DNA from: a virus | Taxonomy: Duplodnaviria > Heunggongvirae > Uroviricota > Caudoviricetes | Virus record (IMG/VR): IMGVR_UViG_2537562192_000015 | Reading direction: 5' to 3' (one strand) | Length of the DNA: 13,508 nucleotides | Shown: positions 6,001-9,000 of the stretch, piece after piece | How positions within the stretch are numbered: position 1 is the stretch's first letter | Layout: every line of letters starts with the position of its first letter | Position numbers: made by a program

Positions 6001-9000
6001 AAACAGTGGCAGGAGCAGGACGGAAAACTTGCCGGAGATAAAACACCGCCTGTCGTGCTGGCTGATGAGCAACTTAAAGATATTGGCAATCTGCAAATTG
6101 TGCCCGACGGGCGCAAATCAGCGCGGATATACAAGGCCGGACACCTTGATCAGGTGATGGTCAAAGGCATAGGTCAGAAGCTGGCGGCGGCAGGCGTACA
6201 GGACGCAGACTATTACCCCGAAGGTATGCACCATAACGAGCGGCAGAACTGGCGTAACTATCTGGAGACTGAGCGCAAAAACATTTCTGACGGACTGGTT
6301 ATTGAGCTGCCTGTAAAGAAAAAAACATCAGAACAATCAGAGGATGAATTAAAACCCCGCGTTGAATGCCGTCCTGATGGCGTTTACTGGGTTACGCCAA
6401 AGGTTGATAAGCAATCCGGTGAAATTATCCGCCCGTGTGAGTGGATTGGTGACCGTATGCGAACCGTGGGGATCGGCCATGATGGCTGCGATGGGTATCT
6501 GATAATCGAACTTGAACCAGAGGGAATGGAAAAAATTATTTATGAGGCCATGCCCCGCAATGAAATCGGCCTCCCTTCTGGATGGTCGCGATTGCGTGGG
6601 CGTGGGGTGGCAGTGACAACCAGTCAGAAACTTTTAAACAAACTTGCGGAATACCTTCAGCGTGAAGGAGAGCGGACACAGTGGGAGGTCACCTCAACGG
6701 CGGGGTGGCATTGTGGCGCTTATGTCATGCCGGATGGTGAGATTATTGGCGTACCAGAAAGGCCCGTTGCCTTCTGTGGTGGTTCGGCGGCGATTAAAGG
6801 TTATGTGGTTCGGGGTACGGCTGATGAGTGGCGCGACAATGTTGCCTCACTGATGCGCGGTAATCACTCAATGATGCTTGGAGTGCTGGTCGGGCTTGCC
6901 GCCCCCCTGAACTCCCTTGTTGGTGGCGGCTGTTTTGGTGTTCATCTTTTTGCGCAGTCGTCGGCAGGAAAAACCACGACAGTGGAAGCAGCAACAAGTC
7001 TTTACGGTGATCCTGAAGTGCTGAAACTTTCATGGGATGCAACCAGATACGGCCTCACGGTGGAAGCTGCGGCACGTAATGATGGCTTTATCCCCATTGA
7101 TGAAATCGGTCAGGGCGGACGGATTAACGATATTGCGCAGTCAGCCTACAGCCTGTTTAACGGTGTGGGGCGTATTCAGGGGCGTAAGGATGGCGGTAAC
7201 CGTGCGGTGATACGCTGGAGAATCGCGGCCCTGAGCACGGGAGAGGAGGATTTCGAAACCTTCCTGATTAAGGGCGGTGTGACGCCTAAAGCTGGTCAAC
7301 TGGTGCGCCTGTTAAGTGTGCCGTTTATTGATACAACGGTTTTTAACGGATATGACGATGGTGATCAGCACGCCAGAGCAATAAAACGGTTTGCATCGAA
7401 TTATTGCGGAGCAGCGGGTCGTGAGTGGATCGGCTGGTTGTCAGCCAACAAAGAACTTGCGGTCAGTGTGGTTAACGAAAAAGAAAACATCTGGCTTAGT
7501 CGTCTTCCTGAAAATGCTTCCCCCCAGGTGAAACGCGTGGCATCCCGTTTTGCAATGCTGGATGCAGCCGGAGAACTGGCAACGGGAATAACCGGATGGA
7601 CAACGGGAGAAAGCCATGCAGCCACACAGCGCGCTTTTGATGACTGGTTGCAGGATTTTGGACTGGATAACAGGGAAAAATATCAGGTTATCAGTCGCGC
7701 CCGCGATTTCATTCAGCGTCACGCCCTTAGCCGTTTTCAGCCGTACACATACGGCAGACAGAACGGAGATATGGACGTGAATTACGGAGCGAGAATCACC
7801 AGTCTGGCGGGGTATCTGGTGAGAGGGCGACGTGATGACGGATTACCGGAATACCACATCATACCGTCAGTATTTGATGAAGAAATCCTGTGTGGCATTA
7901 ACCGAAATTTTGGATGCCAGGCACTGAAAGAAGCCGGAATTCTGATTCATGCAGGTGATAAAAACTGGACGACCAAAACGATAAAGGTTAACGGAATACA
8001 GCAACGCTTTATTGTGCTTCTTGACCAGTCGGAGGAGTAAAAATCGTATTCTCGTGTACGCGTAAAAAAGTGGGCGGATAAGCGGATATGGTTAATAAAG
8101 TGCTTATATATCAGAGCATTATATTGTATTTCCGTATCCACCCTTATCCGCATATATCCGCCCTGTTATGAGAGGAAATTGATAAATATCAATCTTGTGC
8201 AAAAAACACACAAAGTCGTATCCGCCATTATCTGTTTGATTCTGAAGAGAAAAAACATACAAGGCGGATATGGGTGGATACGAAAAATCACGTAACACAA
8301 TGAATGCAAACAATATTTTTCTTCATATCCGCTTATCCGCCCAAAAAGTGTCTTTATAAGTGAATATGTGAAGTTAAAAAACAGAGAGCAAAGCGGGAGA
8401 TTAATGCCATTTCCCCGCAGTAACTACAGAGAGAATCATGTAATGAGCAAAGAAAAAATGAAAATCAGGCAGCACGGCAGGACAAAGATACTTAAAGGTG
8501 AATTTATGAACTCTGACATTAAAACGCTGAGCATATCAGGCGCCCTTCCTGGCTGGTGGGCGAGGTTCAAAGATGACGACGGTACGGAATGGTATAGCCC
8601 AATTGCTGCATGGGCGCTTTGTGAGGTCGCCCCCTGTAATACGGGATGTGCGTATCAGGAGATACTACCCGTCTTGCCAGGTGAAGCAGGCATGGAGCCG
8701 CATTATTCTGATTGTGGGGCGTGCGAGTGCCTTTATCTGCCAGATAAGAAGTTTGTTCACTGCGGTGAGTCATGGGTATTTGCCTGGTATCCGGTTAACG
8801 ACGGCAGCAATAGCGGTACTCTGGAGTAAATCATGAAAGTAAGCCACAAAAAGACAGATCACCGCGCCATTGACATTACAGAGCACTGGCTGAGGGTGGC
8901 GATAAAAATCATTGACCGCAACACGGGAGAAGGATACGCGAAGGAACATCCCGAACTGATAAGCGCATTCATGACCACGGCGGCGGCAAACTTTGCCACG

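Follow-up and report, generated by a model that had tools for sequence, protein, structure and literature searches.

Positions 8071 to 8343 of the 13.5-kb stretch of DNA analyzed here (the window) are very probably, with a probability of about 0.85, the vegetative replication origin of an integrated island of the Gram-negative PICI type, recognized by the island's own DUF927 helicase (5902 to 8040). This kind of origin, in which a Rep protein is paired with iterons, is already known from SaPIs and PICIs, and 8071 to 8343 joins that kind. We infer binding, melting and replication at this site from its repeats, their architecture and conservation, their covariation with the helicase C terminus and the homology of the helicase.

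The island, its helicase and the downstream repeats

The window, from E. coli (STEC), is an island that sits at tRNA-Gly and whose genes are ordered as in a Gram-negative PICI. The integrase domains, AlpA, the helicase and the origin all lie on the plus strand and run in one direction, and the SSB gene is adjacent to the origin, with SSB, ProQ and PerC genes downstream. The stretch from int to the Q-antiterminator region is about 13 to 14.5 kb long and has no annotated structural or lysis genes. The island also has a P4/P1-like C4/CI antisense RNA and Icd-like genes. Since RefSeq labels the neighboring AntA and Icd-like genes as pseudogenes, the island may have lost inducibility even with an intact origin. 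The features referred to below are as follows.

2305 to 2502, plus strand: Phage_AlpA (E = 2.5e-20)
5902 to 8040, plus strand: gene for the DUF927 initiator helicase (Rep), SaPIbov1 Rep/SCCmec Cch type, 712 aa (Pfam DUF927, E = 3.5e-40)
7864 to 8037, plus strand: region coding for the winged-helix part, residues 655 to 712, including K687 and N688; putative iteron-recognition module
8071 to 8090, minus strand: module 1 left iteron set, two TATCCGC units (8074 and 8082), 8-bp spacing
8091 to 8134, no strand: module 1 AT-rich spacer, 73% AT; predicted primary DNA-unwinding element
8135 to 8161, plus strand: module 1 right iteron set, TATCCAC, TATCCGC and TATCCGC, 10-bp spacing
8162 to 8263, plus strand: inter-module region with a solitary unit at 8219 to 8225, 67% AT
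8264 to 8280, minus strand: module 2 left iteron set, TATCCGC (8264) and TATCCAC (8274), 10-bp spacing
8281 to 8325, no strand: module 2 AT-rich spacer, 71% AT
8326 to 8343, plus strand: module 2 right iteron set, two TATCCGC units (8326 and 8334), 8-bp spacing, within the exact reverse complement of 8071 to 8090

The 712-aa helicase matched the PDB profiles of 8tch (E = 3.5e-15) and 5dgk (E = 1.8e-8). A Foldseek search with the helicase model gave significant matches only to 5dgk (the best, about 6e-13) and 8tch, with E values of the order of 1e-13, the model itself being of moderate quality (mean pLDDT of 72.7, with a poorly modelled ATPase core). Both the sequence and the modelled fold group the protein with the self-loading initiator helicases SaPIbov1 Rep and SCCmec Cch. 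Its C terminus was modelled as a helix-helix-hairpin arrangement, with helices at residues 655 to 663 and 668 to 677 and a hairpin at 692 to 696/699 to 707. The zinc-ribbon and Toprim primase domains found in 920-aa relatives are missing from the 712-aa form.

The unannotated gap 3' of the DUF927 gene is 465 bp long. Counting on both strands of the window gave 17 copies of TATCCRC, whereas shuffled sequence averaged 2.97 and never exceeded 9. Ten of these 17 sit within 8074 to 8340, where simple arithmetic from the shuffles predicts about 0.06, so that the roughly ten TATCC(G/A)C units claimed in a preliminary description of this DNA were indeed found. Four units are on the minus strand (8074, 8082, 8264 and 8274) and six on the plus strand (8135, 8145, 8155, 8219, 8326 and 8334), giving an array of ten units in 273 bp arranged in exact and near-exact inverted blocks, the first of which begins 31 bp after the helicase stop codon (8038 to 8040). 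The outer inverted pair (8071 to 8090 and 8324 to 8343) is 20 nt long and 100% complementary, exactly as previously placed, and the inner pair (8129 to 8151 and 8264 to 8286) is 23 nt long and 91% complementary.

Read from left to right, the array comprises two minus-strand units, 44 bp of 73% AT and three plus-strand units, followed by two minus-strand units, 45 bp of 71% AT and two plus-strand units. In relatives the left set of module 1 has a third unit, at a place where the window shows a 9-bp gap. The lowest-stability 30-mer in the entire window begins at 8103, within the module 1 spacer, and the 30-mer from 8299, in the module 2 spacer, is within the least stable 0.4%. The likely melting sites are thus the two spacers (8091 to 8134 and 8281 to 8325) and not the center of the array. 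The center had been described as AT rich, and at 67% AT it is, but the flanking spacers are richer and the center holds the solitary unit. Similarly, nested inverted pairs around one AT-rich center are a valid description of the sequence, although the relatives favor two separable modules, each with its own spacer.

Conservation of the array and covariation with the helicase C terminus

The array was compared across 80 loci, consisting of 76 of 80 species-representative loci, three E. coli relatives and the window. About 75 of the 80, from across the Enterobacterales, have 5 to 16 copies of a 6- to 7-mer starting about 25 to 50 bp past the helicase stop codon, in the same orientation pattern: two or three units, an AT-rich spacer and then three units pointing the other way, usually with another module of this kind after them. 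The spacer length of 45 to 50 bp is kept throughout these approximately 75 loci. Module 2 is missing at about 12 loci and displaced by 0.55 to 2.3 kb at two. The unit itself varies from lineage to lineage, and at least 12 types were counted among the 80 loci; relatives with identical architecture use TATCCCG (L004), TGAACCAAC, GAGACAAC, TAACCCGT and others. The solitary unit at 8219 to 8225 keeps its position in relatives, and its sequence shifts in concert with the other units. At 55 of 77 loci the array is kept though all of the window's downstream genes are absent, indicating that the array travels with the helicase. The proposal of a PICI-like iteron origin directly after the replication helicase gene thus has strong comparative support (PMC6092414, PMC9371898).

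The same observations bear on whether the region is instead a transcriptional control region, with the repeats serving as operators through which the helicase, AlpA or another island protein controls SSB, ProQ and PerC, and with no origin present. Plasmid iteron-binding initiators often autoregulate, the array lies between two codirectional gene blocks, and a conserved leader of 162 bp follows it. However, neither a sigma-70-like promoter nor a terminator was found in 7900 to 8700, the array is 3' of the helicase gene and not at the helicase promoter, and the 55 relatives just mentioned keep it with unrelated downstream genes. Inverted sets around an AT-rich spacer also fit the validated EcCICFT073 and SaPI origins (PMC6092414, PMC9371898). 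We consider control of transcription without origin function very unlikely. Single iteron matches near or upstream of the helicase start (5039, 5240, 6123 and 6426) were considered as autoregulatory iterons and rejected; they are scattered singles that form no cluster and show no concerted change in relatives, and were treated as chance matches.

Terminal inverted repeats that match perfectly over 20 nt at a distance of 233 bp, with AAAAAGTG on both flanks, might also suggest a MITE or other dispersed repeat that had inserted after the helicase gene by chance. Copy number led us to reject this. Among 5,426 complete E. coli genomes, just 10 contained the 291-bp segment, at 11 places and never on a plasmid (one place in nine genomes and two in NZ_CP027323.1), and the ten best places were the known post-helicase sites. 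As the architecture is also conserved across the Enterobacterales with lineage-specific units, chance insertion of a mobile repeat is extremely improbable.

Two minus-strand ORFs (7947 to 8153 and 8119 to 8313) were rejected as coding sequences; they are not in RefSeq, and substitutions in them are centered on repeats and not on codons. At gathering thresholds, the only Rfam match was the C4 RNA, in another part of the window. In E-value mode, 7900 to 8650 gave only sub-threshold plant miRNA hairpins, matches which are due to the inverted repeat.

Iteron type was then related to the helicase sequence. Iteron sharing correlated with the identity of helicase residues 655 to 712 (r = 0.80), and the partial correlation given ATPase-core identity was 0.585, a value reached in none of 2,000 permutations. 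The partial correlation of the ATPase core with the iterons, given the C terminus, was -0.01. Relative to L002/L087, all eight G-type units of the window are replaced by A-type units while none of the other 60 iteron positions differs, against 44 of 233 non-iteron positions (about 19%). Relative to L003/L088, which have the same specificity as the window, one of 60 iteron positions and 20 to 21% of non-iteron positions differ. The G-to-A iteron change coincides with a K687N/N688K swap in the helicase. These sequence comparisons suggest that iterons are matched to their cognate Rep, since 12 or more types track the C-terminal 58 aa. The correlation could partly reflect physical linkage, because the DNA encoding the C terminus adjoins the iterons. 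The pattern of point substitutions, although it derives from few independent lineages, argues against simple block exchange.

In practical terms the most useful by-product is a natural table of specificities, in which at least 12 iteron sequences are paired with variants of one winged-helix wing. It includes a minimal pair, K687-N688 with TATCCGC and N687-K688 with TATCCAC, and could serve the design of orthogonal replicons or the prediction of satellite incompatibility. No earlier description of TATCCGC iterons was found in the literature examined, including the supplement of PMC6092414; they may be depicted in the PICI iteron figure.

The DnaA question and a proposed mechanism

The preliminary description had likened the units to DnaA boxes and raised the possibility that DnaA is recruited. 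The match on which this was based is real, as TTATCCGCA at 8144 to 8152 agrees with TTATCCACA at 8 of 9 positions. The units might then be weak DnaA boxes, with DnaA aiding melting at the island origin or being titrated from oriC. Older "relaxed" DnaA-box consensi accept G at position 7, and oriC has low-affinity DnaA sites that deviate at several positions. In addition, 8041 to 8505 contains one exact TTWTNCACA, TTTTGCACA at 8196 on the minus strand, and the sister lineage L002, whose units are TATCCAC, contains three sites that differ from TTATCCACA at no more than one position.

Against this, only one of the ten units is within one mismatch of TTATCCACA, the other nine having at least two mismatches owing to variable flanking bases (GTATCC.., ATATCC..). 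Neither L002 nor L003 conserves the TTTTGCACA match. Scans of the window and 80 relatives with strict and degenerate consensi found DnaA boxes to be neither enriched nor conserved; exact TTWTNCACA occurred in only 7 of 80 related origins and TTATCCACA, within one mismatch, in 6 of 80. The likeness is gone from the relatives of the same architecture, whose TATCCCG, TGAACCAAC, GAGACAAC and TAACCCGT units are unrelated to the box, and SaPI Rep requires no added loading factor (PMC9371898). We therefore rejected a DnaA-box origin. The likeness is confined to one sub-lineage, so recruitment of DnaA is not supported, and we regard an origin that is assisted by DnaA or mimics its sites as improbable.

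A narrower version is that in the TATCCAC/TATCCGC sub-lineage the recognition sequence of the helicase has converged on the DnaA-box core, so that the origin also binds DnaA-ATP. We give this only a slim chance. If true, DnaA-ATP would help to open the adjacent AT-rich spacers, or, alternatively, the amplified origin would soak up DnaA and stop initiation on the host chromosome during island replication; such mimicry would be limited to some members of the family.

For the preferred reading, an origin recognized by the island's own Rep, we propose the following mechanism, modelled as a whole on that of SaPI Rep. After induction and excision of the island, the C-terminal winged-helix domains of Rep hexamers would bind the TATCC(G/A)CC iterons. 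The opposite orientation of the iteron sets around each AT-rich spacer of 44 to 45 bp would position two hexamers against each other, facing across the spacer. The spacer would then melt, most likely at 8091 to 8134 first, and the helicases would load themselves and unwind outward, with DnaA and DnaC being dispensable. The product of the adjacent SSB gene and a primase activity would support DNA synthesis. Module 2 (8264 to 8343), which is separable or lost in relatives, may serve either as an additional loading site or as an accessory element in cis.

On this reading the annotation of the window would be settled, with the 465-bp gap holding the island origin and the "domain of unknown function" protein DUF927 being the Rep initiator. 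The island bears PerC-family regulators in Shiga-toxin-producing strains, so its mode of replication bears on the amplification and spread of PerC genes.

Comparison with known systems

Origins of the oriC type and those of DnaA-assisted iteron plasmids have in common with the array a TATCCAC core and an AT-rich unwinding element. Unlike them, the array and its relatives lack a conserved set of DnaA boxes, and the repeats covary with the island helicase.

P4 ori/crr combines a fused, multidomain alpha initiator with short repeats that it binds and two separable cis elements. The parallel with P4 drawn in the preliminary description holds for this logic, as the island has a fused multidomain initiator, short repeats and two separable cis elements, and the C4/CI antisense RNA and Icd-like genes are also shared with P4. 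It does not extend to the components. TIGR01613 matches the Pri-Rep protein of EcCICFT073 and not the window protein, which matches only Cch1/DUF927 and so is not of the alpha type. For the P4 type I repeat, which we take to be TGTTCACC, there was no site within one mismatch in 8041 to 8505 and no enrichment in the window (15 versus 10.8 expected), and P4-type iterons were rejected.

In SaPIs, Rep loads itself and recognizes iterons of 5 to 6 nt through a C-terminal winged helix; 6 to 12 such iterons lie directly 3' of rep, and an AT-rich region is flanked on either side by two or more of them, in opposite orientation (PMC9371898, PMC7581432). The island shares with SaPIbov1 and SaPI1 a DUF927 initiator (matching 8tch in sequence and fold), an origin directly 3' of rep and short iterons, of which the ten here likewise flank AT-rich sequence in oppositely directed sets of two or more. 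A hexameric Rep-type helicase with a C-terminal winged helix would also be shared, as predicted here from a moderate model. The differences are the Gram-negative host, a helicase only about 13 to 14% identical over the structural alignment, iterons of 7 to 8 nt instead of 5 to 6 nt, an origin of two modules, an extra 160-aa N-terminal domain in the helicase and the lack of any separate AEP primase gene seen in the island.

The best structural match was SCCmec Cch (5dgk), of the DUF927 family. No origin for Cch itself is described in the literature compared, whereas here a clear iteron array follows the gene; the putative origin reported is a Cch2 binding site (PMC7581432).

A syntenic island with an experimentally validated origin is EcCICFT073 (L086), in which the pri-rep-ori segment can drive the replication of a plasmid (PMC6092414). 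The shared order is int, alpA, YlcI, Icd-like, small ORFs, primase/helicase, origin, hypothetical gene, SSB and PerC. Its origin occupies the same place, with about 11 iterons in inverted blocks and about 190 bp separating the outer inverted pair, and the N-terminal 160 aa of its initiator are 62% identical to those of the window helicase. The remainder of the initiator is unrelated, being P4-family primase_Cterm (TIGR01613) there and DUF927/Cch1 type here; the iterons are T(G/A)TCTACC there and TATCC(G/A)CC here, and the capsid and decoration genes are absent from the island sequence examined here. Together, the two islands show that Gram-negative PICI-type islands use both staphylococcal Rep classes, the SaPIbov1/Cch1 class here and the P4/SaPI5 type in EcCICFT073.

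The repeat array in its island

The window was 100% identical to a chromosomal island adjoining a tRNA-Gly gene in several Shiga-toxin-producing E. coli (STEC), and all island genes were on the plus strand.

Features of the island, in gene order
First, plus: integrase
2305-2502, plus: AlpA-family regulator
After the regulator, plus: Rha and AntA homologues
4893-4980, plus: C4-type antisense RNA (Rfam RF01695, 72.9 bits, E=5.7e-13)
Adjoining the RNA, plus: Icd-like fragments
5902-8040, plus: DUF927 protein gene (712 aa), then the repeat region and two small ORFs
3' of the two ORFs, plus: SSB and ProQ/FinO protein
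Last, plus: PerC-family genes and Q antiterminator

This gene order is that of Gram-negative phage-inducible chromosomal islands (PICIs) (PMC6092414, PMC10111431), and C4 RNA with Icd-like sequence forms a P1/P7/P4-style immunity module known from some of them (PMC10111431). A 488-aa ORF (3279-4745, plus) begins with an AntA domain, and RefSeq gives an AntA fragment and an Icd-like fragment on this stretch, both as pseudogenes; the ORF may be a deletion fusion, a hint of a partly decayed island. The island carries three PerC-family regulators in STEC strains (9974-10267, with further ORFs at 16175-17861 of L001, the RefSeq locus matching the window), and the phage Q antiterminator lies at 12844-13236. 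An effect of PICI PerC-like genes on LEE virulence island expression has been reported (PMC11773190).

TATCCRC occurred 17 times on the two strands of the 13.5-kb window (shuffles: mean, 2.97; maximum, 9). Ten of these were within 8074-8340, where arithmetic from the shuffle result gives an expectation of ~0.06, confirming the repeat units of the preliminary description. The array starts 31 bp 3' of the stop codon of the 712-aa ORF (5902-8040).

TATCCRC units of the repeat region
8074 and 8082, minus: two units
8135, 8145 and 8155, plus: three units
8219, plus: single unit
8264 and 8274, minus: two units
8326 and 8334, plus: two units

The outer inverted pair (8071-8090 and 8324-8343), described previously as exact over 20 bp, was indeed 100% complementary over 20 nt, and the inner pair (8129-8151 and 8264-8286) was 91% complementary over 23 nt. 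The repeat region showed no promoter or terminator consensus and no RNA family match. A dispersed element was rejected: the segment was present in 10 of 5,426 complete E. coli genomes at 11 places in total (nine genomes with one, one with two), with 0 plasmid copies. No text describing TATCCGC iterons was found; a figure in PMC6092414 lay outside the text search and may already show this type.

A 9-bp unit, GGTGGATAA, the third iteron of the left outer block in the relatives L002, L087, L003 and L088, is missing from the window near ~8070 (alignment A3, columns 135-143), indicating that iteron copy number varies even between close relatives. The closely related E. coli loci keep the 162 bp that separate the last iteron from the following annotated gene (8344-8505) well, the final ~65 bp being kept in L002/L087 alone, whereas L004 lacks this stretch. 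Its 30-mer starting at 8352 ranks second in the window for low stability, and 8343-8368 is a degenerate direct copy (73%) of the left iteron block at 8065-8090. The stretch may serve the downstream genes as a promoter or leader, or may be a third iteron set that has decayed.

The DUF927 helicase

The 712-aa protein matched Pfam DUF927 (E=3.5e-40). A profile built from it and 16 relatives matched two solved structures and no others, namely 8tch (E=3.5e-15) and 5dgk, the SCCmec Cch (E=1.8e-8), and the same two were the only significant Foldseek matches (E ~1e-13) of its AlphaFold model (mean pLDDT, 72.7), where the 8tch entry carries the description SaPIbov1 replication initiator helicase. DUF927/Cch has been connected with SaPIbov1 Rep (PMC7581432). 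Several lines of evidence, from sequence profiles and the predicted structure, thus group the protein with the staphylococcal initiator helicases. SaPI Reps are helicases that load themselves and bind 5- to 6-nt iterons through a C-terminal winged helix; 6 to 12 iteron copies lie directly 3' of rep, where an AT-rich region is flanked on either side by two or more of them, the two sides being oppositely oriented (PMC9371898). The final 60 residues of the modelled DUF927 protein comprise two helices (655-663 and 668-677) and a beta hairpin (692-696/699-707), a layout that is winged-helix-like.

The N-terminal 160 aa (within residues 1-163; 5902-6390) were 62% identical to the N terminus of EcCICFT073 Pri-Rep, whereas the remainders are unrelated (DUF927 versus P4 primase_Cterm). 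This domain had no Pfam or NCBIfam match, has a predicted alpha/beta fold (strands 20-25, 51-53, 73-78 and 101-105), is replaced by zinc-ribbon and Toprim primase domains in 920-aa relatives, and looks like a shuffled module.

Conservation and specificity of the probable origin

We collected 80 relative loci (37-68% identity) from one-genome-per-species contigs of Enterobacterales, plus five closer E. coli relatives; the 80 loci analysed comprised 76 of the 80 species-representative loci, three E. coli relatives and the window. In ~75 of 80 loci, a 6- to 7-mer was present in 5 to 16 copies within 480 bp after the helicase stop. The conserved pattern was two to three units, a 45- to 50-bp spacer, three oppositely oriented units, one to two solitary units and then a smaller second module of like design. 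In 55 of 77 loci, the downstream genes of the window were all missing but the array was kept; it follows the helicase and not the downstream genes. This comparative evidence supports the array at 8071-8343 as a replication origin, with a probability of roughly 0.85. The unit sequence was lineage specific.

Iteron units by lineage
TATCCGC: window, L003/L088
TATCCAC: L002/L087
TATCCCG: L004
TTATCCC(G/A): Xenorhabdus, Photorhabdus, Providencia
TGAACCAAC, TGAACCACG, TGAACCGAC, AAACCGAC, TACCCGAC, TGAACCCA, TAACCCAC, TAACCCGT, GGGACAAC, GAGACAAC: more distant members

In L026 (Photorhabdus temperata), the left set, 40-120 bp 3' of the helicase stop, has grown to ten TTATCCCG units in tandem, spaced at 8 bp, versus the usual two to three. 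The L054 contig, titled 'Chryseobacterium sp. 18061', encodes a DUF927 helicase of the Enterobacterales type, its TGAACCAAC iterons having a layout identical to that of Enterobacter loci; contamination or a wrong label probably explains this record.

The preliminary description had an AT-rich centre enclosed by nested inverted pairs. The pairs stand, but the AT-richest parts are spacers at 8091-8134 (73%) and 8281-8325 (71%) rather than the centre (67%), and the relatives support an alternative parsing into two modules, 8071-8161 and 8264-8343. Module 1 occurs without module 2 in ~12 loci, and module 2 sits 2.3 kb further downstream in L036 (Escherichia albertii) and 0.55 kb further downstream in L048 (Limnobaculum allomyrinae), with ~2.2 kb and ~0.4 kb, respectively, between the two modules, an arrangement reminiscent of P4, in which ori and crr are likewise separate. 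Since these spacers are AT-richest and the least stable 30-mer of the entire window starts at 8103, the predicted primary unwinding element is placed in the module 1 spacer.

In the C-terminal alignment, the same unit went with the same wing motif, across different genera too. Iteron sharing and sequence identity over residues 655-712 were correlated (r=0.80); after controlling for ATPase-core identity, the partial correlation was 0.585, a value reached in 0 of 2,000 permutations, and that with the core given the C terminus was -0.01. Because the C-terminal codons adjoin the iterons in the DNA, part of this correlation comes from shared ancestry. Between the window and L002/L087, however, G-type units read A in 8 of 8 cases, while the other iteron positions changed at 0 of 60 and non-iteron origin positions at 44 of 233 (18.9%); with L003/L088, of the same specificity, the changes were 1 of 60 and 20-21%, and L004 had C at the variable position in 9 of 9 aligned units. 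Such concerted change on a conserved backbone argues against mere linkage. Within the C-terminal part of the protein, the TATCCAC lineage has a single change of its own, K687N/N688K, immediately ahead of the wing. L072 (Pantoea rodasii) has a wing similar to that of the GGGACAA group (aligned with L036 and L037), its unit TGGGATAAG differing by one base from TGGGACAAG of L036, and this pair may be another naturally occurring switch of specificity by a single base. The chief added value is a family-wide table of iteron sequences paired with winged-helix variants, together with a testable specificity switch of two residues and one base.

DnaA boxes and known origins

The units had also been viewed as near-matches to the DnaA box that might bind or recruit DnaA. 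TTATCCGCA at 8144-8152 does match TTATCCACA at 8 of 9 positions, and L002, of the sister type TATCCAC, has three such matches, but no other unit of the window came within one mismatch. One site, at 8196 on the minus strand, fits TTWTNCACA exactly, and neither L002 nor L003 conserves it. In the family as a whole, an exact TTWTNCACA was present in 7 of 80 origins and most used units unlike the DnaA box; the resemblance thus belongs to one sub-lineage. Nothing suggests that DnaA binding, which may occur weakly, is a working part of such origins across the family. DnaA recruitment is not supported and is very improbable.

Likeness to PICI and P4 origins held for the PICI gene order and origin kind. 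A P4-type origin was rejected, the repeat region having no P4-type repeats and the helicase not being of the P4 alpha type. EcCICFT073 (L086), an island studied by experiment, is ordered like the window (int, alpA, YlcI, Icd-like, small ORFs, primase, 288-bp gap, hypothetical gene, SSB, PerC), and its origin, which with pri-rep drives plasmid replication (PMC6092414), comprises ~11 T(G/A)TCTACC units arranged as inverted blocks; the members of the outer inverted pair lie ~190 bp apart. The initiators differ: EcCICFT073 Pri-Rep is a P4-family primase_Cterm protein, whereas the window helicase is DUF927/Cch1-like. Two Rep classes have been described for SaPIs and SCCmec (PMC7581432), and this difference indicates that both occur in Gram-negative PICI-type islands. 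The probable window origin is of the same kind as the SaPI and EcCICFT073 origins, and this kind is already known.
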